Below are positions 12,773 to 48,145 of a stretch of DNA of 64,000 bases, in pieces. Below the pieces are notes generated by a model. It was not told where the DNA came from and searched no databases. It saw nothing but the letters and a program-made list of their open reading frames with translations. Positions within the stretch are counted from its first letter, which is position 1. Each line of letters opens with the position of its first letter. The translations under genes were made by a program, and so were the position numbers. Location: positions 682,001 to 746,000 of the forward strand of contig AP039690.1 of NCBI GenBank assembly GCA_051599415.1, written 5' to 3'. This stretch comes from Savitreella phatthalungensis. Its lineage: Eukaryota.

Positions 12773-13478
12773 GAGGGTCAGCTATGAGGCGGACTGCGCG
12801 ATGCTAAGAATGCATGACTTGAATTTCAAGCGAGTGACATGGTCAGTGCCAAAGCAGGACAGGGACCCTGAATGCCAGATGCGCGTGATTGATGATCTGA
12901 GAGTGTCTTTGTAATTGACTCTGAGCTTAGTATTGATGGAGAGTATAATGTATGCTGAGAAATGGAGGATATTGCTTCATGACTTCACTCCACTCGATCA
13001 TCTAGTCGTGCGTATGCAGTGGAGCAGTAGAGTCAATCAATGCATGGCTTGGAAAAAGCTGTCTGTGGAGTAATGCGCAGAGTGGAGGTTGCGGAGATTC
13101 GATGGGCATATCTTTTCAAGGTTAACTGGTCAAGTGTTGAGCAATTAGTTACTTCTGAATCATCCAACCGAGCCCATATTGAATTTGTAGAGTATGCTGA
13201 TCAGAGTGAAGCTTGGAAATGTTTCAACGATCGATATCAGATTAAGTTCTAAATTAAATCAATTTTATCCTCATATGCTCCGATATTGGTACCAGCAAGG
13301 AATATTGATCACTATCAAGCAGTTCACAGGATTGGCCTTGGAACTAGCTTGACTCTCCGTACAACCGCTTCATTCTTTGATTGTGGTTCTGCGCTGTGGC
13401 TACAGTATGGATATGCAAGACAAAGGGTAGGTGATTAGTGTAGATCATATGATATCAGCTGGGTATGATGATACCTCC

Positions 13479-13642
13479 TGTTACGCCAAAAGGTCTTCCA
13501 CCCACAAGTCATGATTCAGGCCCGCACGTGACCTCGTGCGCCACACAGTCTTTTCCATTAGCCACACCAAACCCTTTATAAGTAAAGGGTTCGTCACTCG
13601 TAGTGCATCATCATTCTCTGCACCCTCTCGTTCTACCTAACA
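13479..13642 (+). repeat. 5' LTR (164 bp)
   Basis: tgttacgcc...cctaaca; identical by eye to 19440-19603. Confidence 0.97.
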
Positions 13643-13645
13643 TAT

Positions 13646-13654
13646 TGGTAGCGC
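13646..13654 (+). other. Primer-binding site TGGTAGCGC (initiator tRNA-Met type)
   Basis: 3 nt after the LTR; complementary to the 3' end GCGCUACCA of S. cerevisiae-type tRNAi-Met, as in Ty1/Ty3. Confidence 0.75.
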
Positions 13655-13673
13655 TAGACGGCAGAGTCTGTGT

Positions 13674-16376
13674 ATGTCCTCACGACCCGATAGTCCTACG
13701 ACTCAACAACCAGTGACAGAAGATTCAGCTCAAAATCTTGAAGGTAGAAGTTCTGGTCGTGAATCGCGCACAGACCCTCCATCCTCAACTTCAGGTCGGG
13801 AGACCGAGAGCGGTGCCCAACGCAGCCGACGGGTTGCCTTACCCCTGGAAGACAGACCGAGTACTCGAGCCAATCAAAAAAGGATCGAGGAACTCAGGGC
13901 AGCTTGACGTGCTAAGGAAGCCCAGCAGAGGTTGGAGGCATCAGCCAAACGGGCTGGTACCTCTCAGGAACAAGACCCTTCATTCTCACAACTGCCGGGA
14001 ACATTTCCGAGAGAACCCGCTGCAACCACCTCACCAGTGTTGACCACGGAAGCCAATATGCCGTCCGGGGATACTGCACGTGAGGAACCAGCAGCAGCAA
14101 ACTTTGAACAGTCAGTTCTCGATGCTCTGAACACGCTCCGTCGCGAGGTCGAACGGGGACGTGATTCAACAGATGAGTTACGTGGAAACCTGTCGCAGTT
14201 ATCAAACAATTTTGGGCAATTTGCTCGACAAGTAGACAAACGATTCCGCCGTCTGGAGTCCAGTAGCCGCCCTGTGTCGCAGGAAATGCGACGAGAGGAT
14301 GAAGCACTGCCAGCACGGGACACAACTCCCCAAGTCCCGGAGGAACCTCGTAACAGGAGCCAAACTGAAAACATTGGCGCTCAAGCCCGACAACGTCAAA
14401 CCCCGAGAGCCGAGGCTTTCCCCGGTAATGCTGACCTCACTGGTCAAGACCAGGCATTCAACCAACCTTTCGACTACGGGGGCTCGGCCTTCTTCGCACA
14501 CAGTGTTTGCGATCCCCAAACTCCTAGATTCTCGGAACAACTACGTAGGGCTTCCGTTCCACGCGGAAACGACAGCAACTTACCGATTTTTGGGGGATTC
14601 AACCGTCTTAAAGCTAAGAGTCTCGGAACTCTTGAGACGGACAACCCGCAAAGGTATTTGCAACAATTGGAAGTCCTGAAATCCCAGCACTCCGACGAGA
14701 CCATACTACAAGCGCTTTGCGAGAATTTGAACGGTAACCCAGACACGGTCGTACGTGACTGGTATTACTCTATCATCACCTCGCAATCGCCTCGTGAGGT
14801 CAATCTCCGCTCACATCTCGGAGGATGGATGTCGATGATACACGCTTCTTTCCAAAAAACGCTCATTCAGAACGAAATGTTGCTCGACAAGATTTCCTTC
14901 ACTTGGACCGAGAGTATTATGAGTTTCGTGTCACGCCTTCGCTCTGCCTTGTCGGCCTGTGGCAGAGTGTCACCGGCAACGCAACGATACGAAATAGAAA
15001 AACGACTTCCTTTGGAATTTAGGTTCACTCCTTTTGCCGCCAACGATCTCGAAGGTTTCATTGCCGAACTGCGCTATCGAGAGGCGGCCGCCAAGAATAC
15101 GCATCAAAGTACTTTACGTCTATACTCAAGTTCGGAGAAGTTATCAGGAAACCGATTCGCGAGACAGAAAGAGAACTACCCCAAGATCTCGGACAAGACC
15201 ACTACAGACAAGACCATTACAAGAAAACCGGCAAAGCCTTGTCCAAGGTGCAAAACGTCTCATTTCTATTCGGAAAGCCAGTGTCCCGATGGGAAATGGT
15301 TCAAGCGCGAGAACCTCAAGACAATCACTAACTTCGTCTACGAGGATTCCGAAGACAATGAGTGGGACGAGGACGTTGAAGACCCTATTGACGTACTGGC
15401 AGTTGGGGACAGCCCTTTTCCGTCGCGGCCTACCAGCAAAAGGTCCAGCTCGCCGGCTTCCGAAGAACGAAATTCGAAGCGCGTTTTGGGAGATCTCGAC
15501 GCCATTAACATCAATTTGGTCGAAGCCCGAAGCGACGGAGTATTCGTCCATCAAACTTCAGTCGACGGAACAGCCAGATGCATAAAAGCCCGCCCGGTAG
15601 GCGGACCGCCTTCCGAATACAGCTACACTAAGGTCGGTCACTATCGAATTCAAGTGGCGAACAGCCCTGGAGGAACGCCTGCGTGGCTAGTACTGGACAG
15701 CGGATCTCCGATCTCACTGGTCGCAGCCGGATACCTGGAGAAAGTCTTCCCATCCGCGGTGCCGATGGAGAAGGAACAACATAAAAATCTCTTTGGCATC
15801 GCAGGAGATAAACTGCAATCCACGCACGGCACGCAACTGTCCCTATTCTGTCCTCTGAAGGATGGAGCCTGTGTTGAGATCCAAGGATATTTCCACATCG
15901 TGCCAGAGCTGTCAGCAGGTCTACTCATTGGCAATGACATAGCGACAGCCTATCTGATGAAGACAGACTCTGAAGACTCTACGGTACAGATAGGACCAAA
16001 CGGCCTCATCGCCGAGCTCAGTTTCAAACCAATGGCTAACACGACTTATGAGGTATCCTCTACCGAGGATCGTATCGTTCGACCAGGCCAAGAGGTTCGA
16101 ATCGCAACAGACATTGGTTCCTCGTCCAATGCGCACCGGGGTGAAGAACAAGTGTTCATCGGACAGAGCGTTATCAACAGCGAGTCAAGCTCCAAAGGAA
16201 TGGCCGTCGACGCCCTCCTTGCGCCCTGGCAGTCAAAGATTTGCTTCGCAAATGCCGGAAAGACACCTCTTCGAATTCGAAGAGGCCAGCGGGTTGGATG
16301 GTCCGAACCATTGGCGACTTACTATGTCTTTCAGGATTTTGGCCAGCGGATGGTCACGGGCAACACCACCCGCTAG
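13674..16376 (+). CDS. Gag-protease ORF with one in-frame TGA at 13905-13907
   Basis: Track ORFs 13674..13907 and 13932..16376 share a frame (...EELRAA*RAKEAQQRLEA...). Zn knuckle at 15240-15284; retropepsin LVLDSGS (Asp codon 15696) with LLIGND. Confidence 0.85.
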
Positions 16377-19300
16377 GTTCGGCCCAAAATAGCAGCATCT
16401 ACCACACGGTAGATTTGCCCGAGAATCCAGAACAGGTAAATCTGGATATCGACATCAATCCGGCGCTTCCCCAAGAGGAAATATCCAAACTGAAGTCAGT
16501 CCTACAACGCCACGCCGCTCTGTTCCGGAACGGATGGGGGCTCCTTAATGACGGAACCAAGATGAGTATCCGTCTCAAAAGCGACAGTGAGCCATGGGCG
16601 CAAACCCCATTCCGTCAGTCACCGCGGGCAAAGAAGAAAATCGACGAAGTCCTGGACGAAATGAAGCAGCAGGGTAGAATTGAACCCTCTACTTCACCCT
16701 GGGCCTCACCGGTGGTCGTGGTCTACAAAAAAGGACTTGGCAATGGACCTTCCCAGCCTCGAATGGTCATTGACTATCGGAAAGTCAATGAACTAGTTGA
16801 AAAGGACGAATATCCGTTACCGCGACAGGAAGACGTCCTTGAAGCTGTATCGGGAGCGAAATACATCAGCGCCTTTGATCTGCGGAAAGGCTTTTATCAA
16901 ATACCTATTGACGAAAGGTCTCGACCCCTTACGGCTTTCACGTCGCATCGAGGGTTAGAACAGATGACCGTGTCGATTATGGGGTACTGCAACTCTCCCG
17001 CCTTTTTCCAACGCCAGATGAACAGGATTCTAGCCCCATGGCTGTGGAAACATGCGGCAGCATACGTGGATGATCTGCTCATCTGGTCGGACAATATCGA
17101 CGACCACGTTCGACATCTGGACGAAGTTCTAGGAGCATTCGAGTCTAAAGGCTTAACGCTTTCCGGCCCAAAGGCACACGTGGGTTATTCCGAGGTGGAA
17201 GCATTAGGCCATCGAGTGGGCCGCCTAGGCCTGAGTACACAGGCTTCAAAGGTGGAGGCCATCCGTCGTATGAAGCGACCTAACACTGTTGAAGAACTTA
17301 CCGCCGCACTCGGCATATTCAACTACTACCGTCAATTTGTGCCCAGATTCGCGCAAACAGTAGCTCCGCTGTACGGTATGTTAAAGGCTGCGAACAATAA
17401 TCAGCGAGTCATCTTCAAAAGGCAAAAGAAGGACGGCGACGCGGTGCATTATGACAACCTTAAAAAGAGACCGGTGGTCTGGACTCCCGAGGGGATTATC
17501 GCTTTCGACACAATCAAAGAGCGCTTGTGCGACACTACTACTCTGGCCCCACCAGACTACACAAAAGAATTTCTCCTATACACGGACGCAAGCTACAACG
17601 GATATGGAGCAGCGTTGCATCAGGTTGACCAAAATAATGTGGAACGGCCTATCGTCTTCCTTTCCCGACGGCTGGACAAGCACGAGATGAATTACCCTCC
17701 TACAGAACTTGAATGTGGCGCTCTCATTTGGAGTCTAAAGAAACTACGCCATCTTCTGGAAGGATGCCCAGTGAAGGTGTTTACGGACCATCAAGCACTA
17801 CAGTGGTTAAAGAATCACAAAACCGGTTCAGCAAAGATGAACGACAGACTCGCTCGCTGGGCCCTAATGCTGGACGATTACGATCTCAACATTCAATACC
17901 GTCCTGGAAAGGAAAACGCCAATGCAGACGCTCTCAGCCGACTAGTCAACAACGTACAAGTCAATCTACAAAGCGACTGGACCGAGTACTACCATCGAGA
18001 CAGAGCGTTTGGAGCTCTGTTCGACAAACTTGAGAAAACGGCAACCACGGAACCATTCCAGAACTTCTTCCTTTCCGAAGGCAAACTTTACTTCGAGGAT
18101 AAAGACAACGGACAAGCAAGACTATGCGTACCCAGCAACTTACTGGCAACGATAATCAAGCACGCACACGAGCAGTTTGCTCATCAAGGTGTAGAAAAGC
18201 TCTATGACCGGGTTCGACACCACTACTACGCACGCAACTTGCTACAGCAAGTGCAGAAAACGTGCGCCGACTGTGCCTCCTGCAAAGAAAACAATCCGGT
18301 CCGACATGCCCAATGGGGTGTCCTTCAACCCATAACCGCAAACATTCCACTTCAGGTTGTCTCAATTGACTGGGTTACAGGCCTTCCGGAGTCCGGCGGT
18401 TATAACGCCTTCATGACAATAACGGACAAGTGTACTAAAGTTGTCACTATCATTCCGTGCCGCGATAATGACGGCGCCCCGGCAACAGCGCACAGGTTTT
18501 ATTCCGTCTATTATCGACGGTATGGGCTGCCCGAGCGAATCATCTCAGACAGGGATGTCCGATTCACCTCCAACTTCTGGAAAGCATTGTGCAAGCTACT
18601 CAACATAACCCGAAGCATGACAACTGCATACCACCCGGAAGCAGATGGACAAAGTGAAAGGACAAACCAAATTGTCGAGATCGCTCTTCGCCATTACGTG
18701 GACACCGACCAGGGTAATTGGGACATCCATTGTGCCGCAATAGAATTCGCCATCAACAGTGCTCGCCAGGCATCAACAGGGTACGCACCGTATCATCTAC
18801 TGTATGGCAGGCAGGTTAACGACGGCCTCCACTTGAGTACTGAACAACTCCGTGCCAGTCGTTCTGCGACGGTCCCACCACCGGGGACTTCGCCAAACGC
18901 AGACGAATTCTTTAAAAAGCAAGCTATGCTACGGATGGAAGCTCTCGACAATCTTGCCTACGCCATCATGCGTATGTCCCGCGTTTCTGCCGGCATTCAC
19001 AAAGAATTTGAAGTCGGGCAGGCGGTGATGCTCAATATCAAGGACTATCCCACAAAACGCTTCGTTGAGAGTCGAAAACTCGGACCCCAAAGGATTGGTC
19101 CTTTCAAAGTGCTTGAGAGAGTCGGAAAGCTAGCCTATCGACTGGATCTACCGAAGCAGATCCGCATTCATCCAGTCGTATCCGTCGCGAAACTAGAAGC
19201 CGCTACCGAGAACGTCAGGCTTCATAGGCGACCACACGACAATTCCTCCGATATCAAGCCCAAAACTATACGACTCGAAAGAAAAGGCTCGTACCTCATC

Positions 19301-19429
19301 AGGTGGCAGGGACTTCCCGAGTACGAATGCACATGGGAACCACGCGACACCATTGATGAGAAATTTCCTGACTTGGTGGCCTCATGGCGTTCTCGACGCC
19401 AAGCCGCCAGGGACGGCGCCTCGTCTTAA
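16241..19429 (+). CDS. Pol (RT, RNase H, integrase, chromodomain) in the -1 frame; probably entered at about 16337
   Basis: SPWASP, DYRKVN, YVDD, LYTDAS, DALSR, HHCC, SIDW/ISDRD/ERTN, GPFKV and chromodomain YLIRWQG...TWEP. The listed start is TTG, not ATG. Confidence 0.95.
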   Translation: MLRKCRKDTSSNSKRPAGWMVRTIGDLLCLSGFWPADGHGQHHPLGSAQNSSIYHTVDLPENPEQVNLDIDINPALPQEEISKLKSVLQRHAALFRNGWGLLNDGTKMSIRLKSDSEPWAQTPFRQSPRAKKKIDEVLDEMKQQGRIEPSTSPWASPVVVVYKKGLGNGPSQPRMVIDYRKVNELVEKDEYPLPRQEDVLEAVSGAKYISAFDLRKGFYQIPIDERSRPLTAFTSHRGLEQMTVSIMGYCNSPAFFQRQMNRILAPWLWKHAAAYVDDLLIWSDNIDDHVRHLDEVLGAFESKGLTLSGPKAHVGYSEVEALGHRVGRLGLSTQASKVEAIRRMKRPNTVEELTAALGIFNYYRQFVPRFAQTVAPLYGMLKAANNNQRVIFKRQKKDGDAVHYDNLKKRPVVWTPEGIIAFDTIKERLCDTTTLAPPDYTKEFLLYTDASYNGYGAALHQVDQNNVERPIVFLSRRLDKHEMNYPPTELECGALIWSLKKLRHLLEGCPVKVFTDHQALQWLKNHKTGSAKMNDRLARWALMLDDYDLNIQYRPGKENANADALSRLVNNVQVNLQSDWTEYYHRDRAFGALFDKLEKTATTEPFQNFFLSEGKLYFEDKDNGQARLCVPSNLLATIIKHAHEQFAHQGVEKLYDRVRHHYYARNLLQQVQKTCADCASCKENNPVRHAQWGVLQPITANIPLQVVSIDWVTGLPESGGYNAFMTITDKCTKVVTIIPCRDNDGAPATAHRFYSVYYRRYGLPERIISDRDVRFTSNFWKALCKLLNITRSMTTAYHPEADGQSERTNQIVEIALRHYVDTDQGNWDIHCAAIEFAINSARQASTGYAPYHLLYGRQVNDGLHLSTEQLRASRSATVPPPGTSPNADEFFKKQAMLRMEALDNLAYAIMRMSRVSAGIHKEFEVGQAVMLNIKDYPTKRFVESRKLGPQRIGPFKVLERVGKLAYRLDLPKQIRIHPVVSVAKLEAATENVRLHRRPHDNSSDIKPKTIRLERKGSYLIRWQGLPEYECTWEPRDTIDEKFPDLVASWRSRRQAARDGASS
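16334..16421 (+). other. Predicted -1 ribosomal frameshift signal: G_GAT_TTT plus three-stem pseudoknot
   Basis: Heptamer in the correct gag phase; S1 16345-16354/16365-16374; S2 16357-16363/16415-16421; S3 16397-16403/16408-16414. Confidence 0.75.
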
Positions 19430-19439
19430 CGGGGGCATA
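19430..19439 (+). other. Short polypurine tract (GGGGG)
   Basis: cgggggcata between the pol stop and the 3' LTR. Confidence 0.6.
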
Positions 19440-19603
19440 TGTTACGCCAAAAGGTCTTCCACCCACAAGTCATGATTCAGGCCCGCACGTGACCTCGTGC
19501 GCCACACAGTCTTTTCCATTAGCCACACCAAACCCTTTATAAGTAAAGGGTTCGTCACTCGTAGTGCATCATCATTCTCTGCACCCTCTCGTTCTACCTA
19601 ACA
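19440..19603 (+). repeat. 3' LTR (164 bp)
   Basis: Identical to the 5' LTR and followed by TSD CCTCC. Confidence 0.97.
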
Positions 19604-20264
19604 CCTCCTATCACTGCATCCATGGTCATTTGCCCACGACAAATTCAATCAGATGCATCGATATAGAATAGATTCTGGATTTATGCAATTCAAAGTAAAA
19701 TTGAGATAAAACACTTAACTGGAAATCTGATGGTAGCCTAGATTGACAGCCGATTTTGATCAGAACGTGAAGCCATGATTTATAGATAATTTAGATGTGC
19801 ATAAAATCATCATTTCCGGCAGCTGGATGTCTGAATCGTGGATCGACGTATGTACTGTATCTCTCAATGTTTGCATATTAACGATCCTGGTGAGCCGATC
19901 CAGATTGCGAGCAACGAAGATCTCTCCACACCCATCACATATGCTGATCTACCTCGCTGCTGCATACTTCCTCAACCACTAGTAACCCACTCGATCAAAT
20001 ACAGGAACAATGATTCCAATTCTGTGTATAGAGAGAAGCATCACAAACAACCTCGTGCACGACTTTCCCAAATCTTCAAAACTGGATAACCTCCAGGCAG
20101 CTAGAGAGTCAACAAGACATATTTCTAAAAGGAGCCCTTCGAAGAGAAAGAGTCAATCACTCTCTGTACACGACGCACTCGCTCAAGCACGCTCTCAAAA
20201 CTTGCTCCAGCAAAACTTCATTCTGCTTCTTGCTCATTTACTCATCCGGTAGAATCTGCCCAGC

Positions 20265-44194: not shown

Positions 44195-45040
44195 AAAGAG
44201 CAGGACATCGAGTTGTAGATGTAGATCTAGGCTGGCATCAGCGTAGTCATGGAAGGAGATCATAATCGCATGAACGATGCGTCATCAGAGAGAGCAAGGA
44301 TACGCGGTAATGATTGTGATCGCTGTAAACTTTGAGAATCCTTGTCTGAGCAATGGCACAATAATCATCTAGCAATGACGAGCAGCTCGACAGATGCTGT
44401 CTGAAGCCTTGCGGTACAAGTGAGGTCTAACACTAAATTGTCTAGTCCTGGCCATACGCTAACTGTTCCGTAGGTATGGGTCCAAGCCCAGCTAGAGGGT
44501 GTTATATGTTGCATCCGAGCCAGACAGACAACATGTGATGAATGCCTGAGCCAAGTTATGATCGATCATGTATGCAACATGATAGATACACTATATCCCC
44601 AGCTGTCAAATTCACTATAGTAAACAGTGAGGTACACGGAGGATGTACTATAAATTTAAGTATAGTCCTCTTTGAACTCGAATTAGATCGAGCACGGGGA
44701 TATCTTATACTATAGTATATACTATATAGGTAGCTCAATTGATTTTAAGGTTCGAGATCAATCTACCAAAAATTTGAGATAATCTATCGATCAAAATTAA
44801 ATCAATCGACCACAAGTTAGATAGCAACAATCATTGCAACAAACTGCACTACACGTTCGATCTTCTGCACATGCAGTACACAGTATACATAGTATATACT
44901 TTGTCTGACCTACTTTCAACCCTGCCACTAAGTACATCAGGTCCACTTGGTCCAACTCAATATACAGTCTTACATATCCTGGATTGACGAGACCACGCTG
45001 AGAGGAGAGGTATTGTCAGAAGGAGAGTAGATTTATCTCC

Positions 45041-48000
45041 ATGGAGGCTCTCGTCGCTTGCTTTGAGCGAAGTCTCTCTGCTCAGCTGGATGAACGGCGA
45101 GCTGCTGAAGGGGAGCTTCGAGCTGCAGAGGCACAGGACGGCTTTCTCGGCGCAGTGTTGACGATCGTCCAGTCCGCACCTTCACCTGCAATCCAGCAAG
45201 CTGCAGCTGTATACTTGAAGAACTTTGTCTCGCGCAAGTGGTCAGACATCGACCCACATGATTTCCGGCAGAGACTTGTCCCAGCTATCGTTGGCAGCCC
45301 ACTCAACACGCGTGCTCAGCTTACACGCGTCCTCAATCAGATACTCACAGCAGACTACCCACAGAACTGGCCAGACTTCTTACCAACCACGACACAGCTC
45401 CTCACCAGTTCCGCCATCAATGAAGTCTACGCAGGTCTCCTCTGTTTGCTTGAGCTCGCACGCGTTTTCCGATGGCGTTCTCGCGATCGACGTGACGGGC
45501 TGACCGATATCATCAGAGCCACATTTCCGACAATCTTGCACATTGCAGAGGGCGTACTGGCAGAGGAAAGCGCACTGGCCGGCGACATGCTCAGGCTTGT
45601 CCTCAAGATTTACAAGAGTGTCATTTGGCTAGAACTACCGCCGATCCTGCAGGACATGTCATCGATGGTGCCATGGGGACAGGTCCTCCTCCGCACAATT
45701 TCGAAACCGCCGCCGGCGGAATCCATGGCTGAAGAAGACCCAGAGATTCGTGCGGGTGACGTCTGGTGGCGGGCTAAAAAATGGGCATACTTCTGTTTGG
45801 ACCGCCTGTTTGTCAGATACGGTGACCCTTCACAGCTCTCCGGCGATTCTGCCAAGGAATATGCAGCTTTCAGCGAAACATTCGTCACACAGTTTGCACC
45901 GGAGATTCTCAAGTGCTACCTAAGCATTGTACAGGCATGGACCTCAGGATCATGGCTCTCCCCAAAAGCTCTGTACTACACCGGCAACTTCTTCGCCATT
46001 AGTGTGCGTCCAAAGACGACGTGGGCGTTGATCAAGGACAATGTCGATTTACTCATTGAACACTTCGTCTTTCCGCAGATGTGCCCCACTGCTGCCGACC
46101 TGGAGCTCTGGGATGAAGACCCACAGGAATACATTTCGAAGCGCATCGACGTCTATGAAGACTTCACATCACCTGACACAGCTGCCCTGAACTTTCTCCA
46201 GGCATGCTGCAAGCGGAAGAAGGCCAATTGCTACATGCGTGCGCTCGAGTTTGCCAACAAGAAGCTCGAAAGCGTGCGAAACCCGCAAACGCTTGAGGCC
46301 GCTATTCATAAGGAAGGTGCGCTGCGGATCATCGGCAGCCTGGCACACATCGTCATTCGGGATGATCATATCCGAGGAATGATGGACGGCTTTTTCCAAC
46401 AGCACGTCTTTTCAGATTTCACCTCACCGCACAGACTGTTGCGTGCACGAGCGTGCGAGCTCAGCAATCGCTTTGCCAACGTGCAATTCGGCGAGACAAG
46501 CATCGCAGCCATCTATCAGGGCGTTTCGCGGTGTCTCTCCGACACAGAATTGCCAGTTCGTGTCGAGGCAGCTTTAGCACTACAACCGCTCCTCGAGCAG
46601 GACTACGTCCACCATGCGCTGATGAGGGACATTCCACAAATCATGAAGGTTTTGCTTCAACTAGCAAACGAGGTCGATGTTGATAGTCTTGCGAACGTCA
46701 TGGAAGAATTTGTAGAGGTCTTCTCTACAGAGCTGACGCCTTATGCCGTCGAATTGGCCAGCTCATTGCGCGACACGTTCCTGCGCATCATGTCCGAGCA
46801 CGACGACACCGACGACAAGTCTCTCGCGGCACTCGGCATTCTCAACACTATCGGAACGCTCATCCTGTCGCTTGAAAACAGCGCAGAATCGTTGTTCAAG
46901 CTCGAGGATTGCGTCACGCCTGTCATCGAGTTTGTCGTCCGACATGCTTTGATCGATCTATACGCAGAGGCATTCGAGATTGTTGATAGCTGCACTTGGT
47001 CAGCCAAAGCGGTGTCTCCAACCATGTGGAACGTCTTTGGCATGCTCTACGAGGCCTTCCTTTCGACTGGCATTGACTATATTGAAGAGCTTCTGCCAGC
47101 ACTTCAGAATTATCTCTCCTTCGGCCGCGATCATATCGCCGAAAGCGAAGAGCACCAGCGAATGTTCTTCAACATCATCCACGCTGTCTTCGAAAACGAT
47201 CGTCTTGGCGTTCAGGATCGCAATTGTGTTGCTCGATTGGCCGTGTACTTTATTTTGAACCTACGCGGCAGCGTTGACGGCTATGTGGTCAAGCTGCTTG
47301 AGATCGCCGGAGCTCGTCTGAGCAGCGCGAACGAGCCGAAGAAGGGCGTGTACTTCCGTAATCTACTCCAAATCGTCGTCTCGGCAATCTACTACAATCC
47401 ACAGGCTGCGCTGTCGTGGCTCGATGCTCACGGCGCGCTGGAGCCATTCCTCAACTTGTGGCAAGCCAATATCACGAGCTTCAAGCGCGTGCCTGAGCTC
47501 AATCTGCAGGTCTCCTCGCTCGTGGCTGTAATGACACTGCCACAGGCGCCCGAGAGCGTTACACGCGCACTACCAGACCTTTCAGCCGCCCTGCTCACCG
47601 TGCTTGGGCAACTGCCACTGGCGATACAGAAGCGCAAGGACGCTCAAAACAGGCTACAATCCGAGGACCAGCTGTTGTGGACAGGCGACGCGCATGCGGA
47701 TGACGATGACGATGCCGACTGGGACGAACCTGGAGACGGTGACTTGCCGGCAGATGAAGAGGACGAGTACGTCAAATTCCTGAGCAGCGAAGCTAGGCGT
47801 ATTGCTGCCGAGAAAGGTAATGTCCCTGGGACGAATGATGGAGAGCATGGATCAGACGCATTCGATGGCGATTTTGGCGGCAACGGTCATACCAATGGAT
47901 CTAATGACGATGATGACGATGATGATGATGACGACGACGATGATGACGACGGTATGCTAGCGGAAGACGTCCTTGCCAGTGGACCTCTGAACGACGTCGA

Positions 48001-48145
48001 TGCATTCGCACTCGTCCACGCAACCTTTGCGACACTCCACGACACCGATCCAGCCAGGTACAACCTCCTGACTGGAAGCTGGAACGATAACCAGAGACAG
48101 CTTTTCCAGGGAGTGCTAACGCATGCGCAGGCGTCAAGGCAGTGA
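45041..48145 (+). CDS. NMD5: Importin-beta family karyopherin (importin-7/8, Nmd5/Sxm1)
   Basis: IBN_N (QQAAAVYLKN), WWRAKKW, LWDEDPQEY, LRARAC, LPVRVEAALAL; acidic tail with GAY repeats at about 47903-47950. Confidence 0.92.
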   Translation: MEALVACFERSLSAQLDERRAAEGELRAAEAQDGFLGAVLTIVQSAPSPAIQQAAAVYLKNFVSRKWSDIDPHDFRQRLVPAIVGSPLNTRAQLTRVLNQILTADYPQNWPDFLPTTTQLLTSSAINEVYAGLLCLLELARVFRWRSRDRRDGLTDIIRATFPTILHIAEGVLAEESALAGDMLRLVLKIYKSVIWLELPPILQDMSSMVPWGQVLLRTISKPPPAESMAEEDPEIRAGDVWWRAKKWAYFCLDRLFVRYGDPSQLSGDSAKEYAAFSETFVTQFAPEILKCYLSIVQAWTSGSWLSPKALYYTGNFFAISVRPKTTWALIKDNVDLLIEHFVFPQMCPTAADLELWDEDPQEYISKRIDVYEDFTSPDTAALNFLQACCKRKKANCYMRALEFANKKLESVRNPQTLEAAIHKEGALRIIGSLAHIVIRDDHIRGMMDGFFQQHVFSDFTSPHRLLRARACELSNRFANVQFGETSIAAIYQGVSRCLSDTELPVRVEAALALQPLLEQDYVHHALMRDIPQIMKVLLQLANEVDVDSLANVMEEFVEVFSTELTPYAVELASSLRDTFLRIMSEHDDTDDKSLAALGILNTIGTLILSLENSAESLFKLEDCVTPVIEFVVRHALIDLYAEAFEIVDSCTWSAKAVSPTMWNVFGMLYEAFLSTGIDYIEELLPALQNYLSFGRDHIAESEEHQRMFFNIIHAVFENDRLGVQDRNCVARLAVYFILNLRGSVDGYVVKLLEIAGARLSSANEPKKGVYFRNLLQIVVSAIYYNPQAALSWLDAHGALEPFLNLWQANITSFKRVPELNLQVSSLVAVMTLPQAPESVTRALPDLSAALLTVLGQLPLAIQKRKDAQNRLQSEDQLLWTGDAHADDDDDADWDEPGDGDLPADEEDEYVKFLSSEARRIAAEKGNVPGTNDGEHGSDAFDGDFGGNGHTNGSNDDDDDDDDDDDDDDDGMLAEDVLASGPLNDVDAFALVHATFATLHDTDPARYNLLTGSWNDNQRQLFQGVLTHAQASRQ

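Follow-up and report, generated by a model that had tools for sequence, protein, structure and literature searches.

How the pol polyprotein of a long terminal repeat (LTR) retrotransposon is made when its open reading frame (ORF) is out of register with the upstream gene is the question raised by positions 13479-19603 (+ strand) of a 64,000-nucleotide stretch of contig AP039690.1 from Savitreella phatthalungensis (the whole stretch is hereafter called the window). The locus is an intact, recently inserted Ty3/Gypsy chromovirus, in which pol (ORF2) overlaps the end of the upstream ORF (ORF1) by 232 nt and lies one base back, that is, in the -1 frame. A prediction made from the nucleotide sequence (the original prediction) had described this frame relation, which is read directly from the 232-nt overlap, and had proposed that ribosomes shift on a G_GAU_UUU heptamer under the influence of a virus-like three-stem pseudoknot. 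We infer that -1 frameshifting probably occurs in this element, and that the cassette is real and probably functional, judging from its position and phase and from the arrangement of relatives. The features on which this reading depends are as follows.

13674..16376, + strand: ORF1 (gag, protease and dUTPase-like domain), with an ATG at 13674 and an open frame from 13908 to the TAG at 16374-16376
16145..19429, + strand: ORF2 (reverse transcriptase, RNase H, integrase, SH3 and chromodomain), 1094 codons in the -1 frame
16334..16340, + strand: proposed shift site G_GAU_UUU, in X_XXY_YYZ phase (ORF1 codons CAG GAT TTT)

Proposed shift site in the ORF1/ORF2 overlap

From stop to stop, ORF1 covers 13908-16376 (822 codons), and its TAG lies 12 codons past the heptamer. 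The part of ORF2 upstream of 16340 is probably untranslated: homology of ORF2 to its relatives starts at the motif IDINP, at about residue 100 of the open frame, and upstream of the reverse transcriptase (RT) homology there is no plausible start of its own except one Met codon within the overlap. Four in-phase heptamers with a homopolymeric YYY occur in the overlap, namely GTCAAAG (16232), CGCAAAT (16247), CGGAAAG (16256), and GGATTTT (16334). None of them is strictly canonical, and UUU is found only in GGATTTT, which stands in exactly the phase that had been predicted.

The original prediction had also described GGAUUUU as a functional slippery site, and the literature agrees: in RNA2 of pea enation mosaic virus (PEMV) this heptamer was tested by mutagenesis, all four U residues being essential and 36-40% remaining when P-site re-pairing was blocked (PMC4737148), and it is cited for red clover necrotic mosaic virus (PMC3561658). 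G_GA is listed as X_XX for dianthoviruses, umbraviruses, insect flaviviruses, and mesoniviruses (PMC5009743), and GGAUUUU has been proposed as the site in totiviruses of a basidiomycete yeast (PMC3561658).

In the proposed mechanism, most ribosomes would terminate at the ORF1 TAG and a minority would slip by -1 on G_GAU_UUU, with the A-site tRNA-Phe re-pairing from UUU to UUU and the P-site tRNA-Asp from GAU to GGA, so that a fusion protein with the transframe junction FQDF-WPADG would be produced. An RNA structure starting 4 nt downstream would promote the slip. Its first stem (stem 1) would most likely be locked as an H-type pseudoknot by pairing of its loop with 16415-16421 (stem 2), on which the hairpin of stem 3 would stack. 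That the frameshift takes place at this heptamer is considered likely. Among ORF1-like relatives of at least 500 amino acids, 9 of 21 carry Phe within the last four residues (13% expected; binomial p 6.6e-4), which weakly favours shift sites on a UUU codon near the ORF1 ends; one of these nine Phe-tailed proteins, P0152 (1382 amino acids), is probably not an ORF1.

Predicted RNA structure downstream of the heptamer

The elements of the predicted structure, and a near-repeat that bears on its folding, are listed below.

16345..16374, + strand: stem 1 hairpin, 16345-16354 with 16365-16374, 9 of 10 pairs, 10-nt loop
16357..16363, + strand: 5' arm of stem 2, CGGGCAA, in the stem 1 loop; -10.8 kcal/mol as a duplex with 16415-16421
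16415..16421, + strand: 3' arm of stem 2, TTGCCCG, the exact complement of 16357-16363
16397..16414, + strand: stem 3, ATCTACC-ACAC-GGTAGAT, a perfect 7-bp hairpin with a 4-nt loop (-7.8 kcal/mol), abutting 16415
16284..16305, + strand: near-repeat of the spacer and the 5' arm of stem 1, GGCCAGCGG..GATGGTC; downstream copy at 16341-16356

The heptamer is followed by the 4-nt spacer GGCC (16341-16344), or by a spacer of 0 nt if GGCC pairs with 16381-16384. In stem 1, AGCGGATGGT (16345-16354) pairs with ACCACCCGCT (16365-16374) with one A.C mismatch. Every coordinate and pairing originally given for the three stems and the spacer proved exact. Judged by the groove-spanning rules for H-type pseudoknots, the loop lengths (2 nt in loop 1 over the 7-bp stem 2, 1 nt at the junction, and 40 nt in loop 3 over the 10-bp stem 1) are sterically compatible with such a knot, and the placement of stem 3 for stacking on stem 2 is favourable.

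Pseudoknots were evaluated by a crude routine of our own, which holds out a helix of at least 5 bp, folds the remainder under constraint, adds a fixed penalty of 8.1 kcal/mol in total, and keeps the crossing solutions. The best pseudoknot that it found consists of exactly the three predicted stems (-32.3 kcal/mol vs -31.2 kcal/mol for the nested fold). In the nested ensemble, the pair probabilities of stems 1 and 3 are about 0.8 and 1.0, respectively, and that of the stem 2 arms is 0.03.

The minimum free energy (MFE) of the 90 nt at 16341-16430 is -31.2 kcal/mol, compared with a mean of -22.1 kcal/mol (standard deviation 2.9) for shuffled sequences (z -3.15), and one of 200 shuffles was as stable. 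When dinucleotide shuffles were passed through the pseudoknot routine, the nested energy was reached in 6 of 1000, the pseudoknot energy in 0 of 1000, and the better of both in 1 of 1000. Shuffling of the 56 nt downstream of stem 1 generated a complement of at least 7 nt to the loop in 166 of 20000 cases and a perfect 7-bp hairpin in 89 of 20000, and the two together in 0 of 20000.

Domain organization and the position of the frame change

Pfam assigns to ORF2 the families RVT_1 (E 7.5e-27), RT_RNaseH (E 5.4e-35), Integrase_H2C2, rve, SH3_Tf2-1, and Chromo (E 1.6e-10), and no protease family was detected in it by Pfam. For ORF1, Pfam returned no significant family and no gag family; a weak match to dUTPase (E 0.12) fell below the cut-off. 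The last 282 residues of ORF1 were considered by fold, in an AlphaFold2 model built on a 40-row alignment (mean predicted local distance difference test score 86.3), which contains two predicted domains.

15633..16037, + strand: predicted retropepsin (aspartic protease) domain with the motif LVLDSGS, model residues 36-170
16029..16316, + strand: predicted dUTPase-fold domain, the last folded domain of ORF1, model residues 168-269

Model residues 36-170 match the RVP domain of Ddi1 (Z 15.0, root-mean-square deviation 2.4, 122 residues aligned) and the proteases of xenotropic murine leukemia virus-related virus, feline immunodeficiency virus (FIV), equine infectious anaemia virus, and Mason-Pfizer monkey virus (Z about 10). 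Residues 168-269 match the dUTPase of FIV (Z 9.8, root-mean-square deviation 3.2, 90 residues aligned) and human dUTPase (Z 9.0); the domain thus has the dUTPase fold and is diverged, being found by fold rather than by Pfam. A Pfam dUTPase domain is present in some pol relatives (P0018 and P0041).

On these models, ORF1 comprises gag, a protease, and a dUTPase-like domain. The original description of the upstream ORF as gag covers part of its content. Because ORF1 carries the predicted protease and dUTPase-like domain, the frame change would lie at a junction of the pro/pol type and not at the end of gag. Order is lost in the ORF1 model at about residue 264, and the proposed shift site, whose codons correspond to residues 268-270, is thereby placed in a linker just past the last folded domain.

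Two further observations concern the gag part. A putative zinc-knuckle pattern, CX2CX3HX6C (C395/C398/H402/C409 of P0123), is invariant in 14 of 14 aligned ORF1 relatives; the usual retroviral spacing is CX2CX4HX4C. From the ATG at 13674, a reading frame of 77 codons runs in register with ORF1 and is interrupted solely by a TGA (13905-13907) in a coiled-coil-like context. At 13905, a sibling contig (run X2; see below) reads C, giving an Arg codon; in the window copy, gag appears either to be interrupted prematurely in its N-terminal portion or to begin at a later Met.

Conservation of the split in relatives and sibling copies

In a collection of 5.8 billion proteins, the closest pol proteins share 54-57% identity with ORF2 over the aligned part; they are pol-only, mostly about 1100 amino acids in length, and none has a recorded protease family. 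When the C-terminus of ORF1 served as query in an exhaustive HMMER search, 43 proteins were retrieved, among which the ORF1-like ones are 556-872 amino acids long and end 18-104 amino acids past the protease/dUTPase-like match. Homologue searches with the ORF1 C-terminus or with a 14-sequence ORF1 alignment retrieved the window's own protein only. ORF1 and pol relatives were then paired (43 x 120 pairs, in both directions), nucleotide compatibility over at least 12 overlapping codons being required. One compatible pair, P0127 and P0007, was found, in the -1 relation only, and its back-translated overlap contains an in-phase G_GCU_UUU. P0166, which belongs to the cluster of P0127 and shares its tail, is encoded with P0007 on one 6028-nt contig. 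The -1-frame motif SGF, found in the window and in P0007, was considered as a sign that the -1 frame is translated already upstream of the site and was rejected, because it occurs in these two sequences only and largely follows from the shared GGNUUUU.

A scan of viral contigs gave nine pattern matches and no relatives among them. The scan of metagenome contigs gave 113 relatives, of which 80 were kept (26-46% identity), and none of the metagenome relatives encodes P0003-P0010 or P0032 at >50% identity. Among the 45 metagenome loci with both protease and RT matches, the two are in the same frame in 42 (24 of them in a single ORF), in the +1 relation in 2, and in the -1 relation in 1. This last locus, L078, consists of a protease-containing ORF1 (260-1381) and an RT-containing ORF2 (1102-2187) and has a canonical in-phase heptamer, C_CCU_UUC, at 1276-1282. 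The Phe codon of its site lies 8 residues before the pol motif HLSAE..LGIGD and that of the window 9 residues before the aligned HHPLGSA; on this alignment the two shift sites are taken as homologous. Positions 1270-1282 of L078 hold two tandem in-phase heptamers, G_UCU_UUC and C_CCU_UUC, whose translation is SFPF. The PFRQ ending of the ORF1 tails in P0131 and P0135 suggests that these two proteins share the L078 site.

The break falls elsewhere in other relatives. L006 has a 670-amino acid upstream ORF in the -1 relation to a 1533-amino acid ORF running into the RT match, and L001 has protease, dUTPase-like motif, and RT in one ORF, with a short overlapping ORF upstream at the contig start. 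The break is thus between gag and protease in L006 (and, by ORF layout only, in L001), absent in the single-ORF relatives, and between protease-dUTPase and RT in the window and L078. Eighteen metagenome loci (L011, L024-L026, L030, L035-L038, L042, L043, L047, L052, L053, L064, L065, L073, and L075) have protease and RT in the same frame, split by one or more in-frame stops, and may be either decayed copies or elements using stop-codon readthrough. The arrangement of the window element is thus conserved in two relatives at the nucleotide or near-nucleotide level (the P0127/P0007 pair and L078), and since relatives have the same split, the break between protease-dUTPase and RT with a U-rich in-phase heptamer is a trait of the lineage and not a lesion.

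Sibling contigs from two runs of one sample cover 13613-19603 with 17 differences and 13613-19469 with 26. Relative to the window copy they contain no insertions or deletions, and none of the differences falls within 15953-16715, so the check for an indel that accompanied the original prediction came out in its favour and a private indel was rejected as the cause of the frame break. Loose ends of the sibling contigs at both LTR borders enter other flanks and thereby indicate at least one further insertion. Of the coding differences among copies, 14 of 27 are synonymous, compared with roughly a quarter to a third expected for random coding changes, which suggests that both ORFs are under selection. 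The sibling copies are too similar (about 99.6% identical) to serve as independent evidence.

Alternative explanations

Several points weigh against the cassette in its proposed form. The spacer between heptamer and structure is usually 5-9 nt, and 4 nt is below this range. The terminal Phe excess among ORF1-like relatives could reflect the C-terminal motif of dUTPases, which has a conserved Phe, instead of shift sites. When the whole element was scanned (380 overlapping 90-nt windows, 60 shuffles each), the 90-nt window at 16336 came 8th both in z (-3.0) and in MFE; stronger ones include that at 14701, with a z of -5.0, and that at 16246 (MFE -34.3 kcal/mol, z -3.66). The structure, although unusual and in a good position, is not the only such one within this RNA. 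In a 241-nt fold, the upstream near-repeat (16284-16305) captures the 3' arm of stem 1, a pairing that a ribosome on the heptamer would probably displace; a choice between two 5' arms for the 3' arm could represent a switch or the trace of a small duplication. The sole close copies with available DNA are identical across the cassette, so covariation is uninformative. In L078, the 90 nt past the heptamer show no notable structure (z +1.36), the nested energy being reached by 291 of 300 shuffles and the pseudoknot energy by 249 of 300. Because L078 is distant (about 27-29% RT identity) and has a canonical heptamer, this counts against conservation of the structure throughout the family rather than against its presence in this copy.

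The same site could be served by a purely nested stimulator, consisting of stem 1, perhaps together with an extended stem 3, with the complementarity between the loop and 16415-16421 being fortuitous. Both the MFE and the centroid folds are nested and contain stems 1 and 3, and in them 16415-16421 pairs with 16392-16395 (stem 3 extended across a bulge) and with 16380-16382 at a probability of 0.74-0.95. Although the predicted knot is the best found, its advantage over this nested fold amounts to no more than 1.1 kcal/mol with an arbitrarily set penalty of 8.1 kcal/mol, and energy therefore cannot choose between the two. An equivalent 7-nt downstream complement exists for 85 of the 5698 native 10-mers of the element, L078 gives no pseudoknot signal, and stem-loops can substitute for pseudoknots (PMC3203594). 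Against a nested stimulator, stem 1 alone is weak (-10.7 kcal/mol, with its mismatch), so that an additional element is plausible for a weak heptamer, and a GC-rich 7-mer complement in the stem 1 loop is rare in the shuffles described above, never occurring there together with stem 3. A nested stimulator with a fortuitous loop complement is possible but somewhat doubtful. Given the site, the chances that stem 2 forms and matters appear about evenly balanced, and the three-stem pseudoknot is a plausible stimulator, about as likely as a plain hairpin. The complete proposal, with frameshifting at G_GAU_UUU and the three-stem knot included, is accordingly put forward tentatively, at slightly less than an even balance.

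Another in-phase site of the overlap might be used instead, mainly C_GGA_AAG at 16256-16262 (G_UCA_AAG at 16232 is weaker), which has a hairpin of its own.

16256..16285, + strand: rival cassette, C_GGA_AAG (16256-16262), 3-nt spacer, and a perfect 8-bp hairpin (16266-16285), -12.6 kcal/mol

The hairpin at 16266-16285 is palindromic (CCTCTTCG-AATT-CGAAGAGG). It is stronger than stem 1 alone, and the 90-nt window from 16246, one of the stronger ones in the scan, includes this region. The heptamer lies within the conserved motif of the dUTPase-like domain (N.G..P..L..G...G), so a shift there would truncate the domain in the fusion protein, removing its conserved end, and both heptamer and hairpin may be by-products of the coding sequence. 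The position that corresponds to 16334 is occupied by a U-rich in-phase heptamer in both L078 and P0127/P0007, and heptamers of the type X_XXA_AAG are poor shifters on eukaryotic ribosomes. Use of C_GGA_AAG or another overlap site is thus improbable. Still less probable is the absence of any programmed frameshift, the copies being dead or non-autonomous with a shared old indel, or pol being expressed by internal initiation, splicing, or transcriptional slippage. The window copy is not flawless, as shown by the TGA at 13905-13907 where a sibling contig has C, and copies that are so nearly identical would share any ancestral indel. Yet both ORFs are long and open with many synonymous differences, relatives at 25-57% protein identity share the split (two of them in the -1 relation with in-phase U-rich heptamers), and ORF2 has no plausible start apart from the single Met codon in the overlap. 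Transcriptional slippage was rejected separately, the run consisting of only four T, too few for efficient slippage.

Comparison with known systems

A -1 frameshift is the predominant gag-pol strategy in fungal chromoviruses of the Tf1/sushi type (10.1101/2022.12.06.519325), -1 frameshifting has been described in Gypsy elements of Verticillium (PMC3441728), and in a 2003 survey many LTR elements showed -1 arrangements with classical heptamers (summarised in PMC5009743). Like the fungal chromoviruses, the window element is of the Ty3/Gypsy type, carries a chromodomain, and has its pol in the -1 frame. In the Verticillium elements, protease is encoded in pol (PMC3441728), whereas here the predicted protease and dUTPase-like domain are in ORF1 and the proposed shift lies one or two domains further downstream. 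The original prediction had regarded a three-stem knot as unfamiliar among fungal LTR elements. No description of one was found in a limited literature search, but since -1 frameshifting is already the norm in fungal Gypsy elements, the novelty is narrower than claimed.

With viruses of the PEMV type the element shares the identical non-canonical heptamer, with full A-site and partial P-site re-pairing. It differs from them in that a bulged stem-loop and a kilobase long-distance interaction are used there and a local partner is proposed here (PMC5009743, PMC4737148). In PEMV the stop lies 3 nt after the site, in contrast to 12 codons here. This likeness is an analogy and not membership, the host and the genetic element being unrelated.

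The proposed structure shares with the three-stem pseudoknot of SARS coronavirus and the H-type pseudoknot of infectious bronchitis virus, which has a long stem 1, the order of slippery site, short spacer, stem 1 of about 10-11 bp, stem 2 formed between the loop and a downstream segment, and an extra hairpin in the long loop. The coronavirus heptamer is different, and in the window the spacer is 4 nt, 22 nt are unpaired between stems 1 and 3, and stem 3 directly abuts stem 2. A search of 16200-16500 against Rfam returned three chance-level matches only (E 1.3-5), to unrelated families, and without Rfam similarity the coronavirus resemblance is architectural only. The characterization of the stimulator as virus-like thus stands for its predicted topology, but the diverged relative L078 has no comparable structure.

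In alpharetroviruses such as Rous sarcoma virus, protease is encoded in the upstream frame with gag, and only the RT-integrase part needs a -1 shift. The window element likewise has its predicted protease upstream of the shift; Rous sarcoma virus is a retrovirus with another heptamer and stimulator and no dUTPase at that position. A dUTPase between protease and RT is known from PosPlaTy3-5 of Postia placenta and from Phanerochaete and Tuber elements (PMC2864245), and the window element shares with these chromodomain Gypsy elements the placement of that domain. It differs from them in that the domain is shorter and diverged and ends ORF1, with the shift site directly after it; the account in PMC2864245 that gives the domain order carries no mention of a frameshift there.

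Taken together, the -1 shift in fungal chromoviruses, the dUTPase placement, the heptamer (in plant and insect viruses), and the three-stem topology (in coronaviruses) are each already known. A scenario combining them would be that the lineage, probably of fungal chromoviruses, moved its shift from the gag/protease boundary to the protease-dUTPase end, onto a Phe (UUU) codon, and compensated for the weak G_GAU_UUU by a coronavirus-like three-stem knot acquired convergently. As a whole this scenario is unlikely, if conceivable.

Implications

If the knot is real, the element would provide a compact natural three-stem frameshift stimulator outside RNA viruses, suited to the study of stimulator strength in relation to a weak heptamer and assayable in a fungal or yeast system. 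The frameshift position in the gag-protease-(dUTPase)-RT array appears to be evolutionarily mobile across the family, and this position sets which enzymes are present at capsid-level and which at catalytic-level amounts. As it stands, the finding amounts to a recoding strategy that is commonplace among such elements, and its main use is in correcting annotation, since gene callers split or mis-splice such genes.

Termini of the element and its surroundings

The element is delimited by the following features.

13474..13478, + strand: target-site duplication CCTCC, 5 bp, read from the sequence; 3' copy at 19604-19608
13479..13642, + strand: 5' LTR, 164 nt, TG...CA, 100% identical to 19440-19603
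19440..19603, + strand: 3' LTR, 100% identical to the 5' LTR
13646..13654, + strand: putative primer-binding site TGGTAGCGC, read from the sequence

The element thus has both LTRs and a target-site duplication, and its domain order is protease (by fold), RT, RNase H, integrase, and C-terminal chromodomain, as in chromoviruses. The putative primer-binding site is presumably complementary to the 3' end of initiator tRNA-Met. ARAGORN found no tRNA genes within the 64-kb window. Among pol relatives with a named source, the closest belong to Basidiomycota and Ascomycota, which makes a fungal origin of the element likely.

The window contains many long ORFs, and a neighbouring one (45002-48142) resembles eukaryotic importins. 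Part of the LTR (13524-13612) is matched by contigs of the X1 and X2 runs with 14 differences in 89 nt, followed by unlike sequence, which suggests that a related family has a diverged LTR at another place in the genome.

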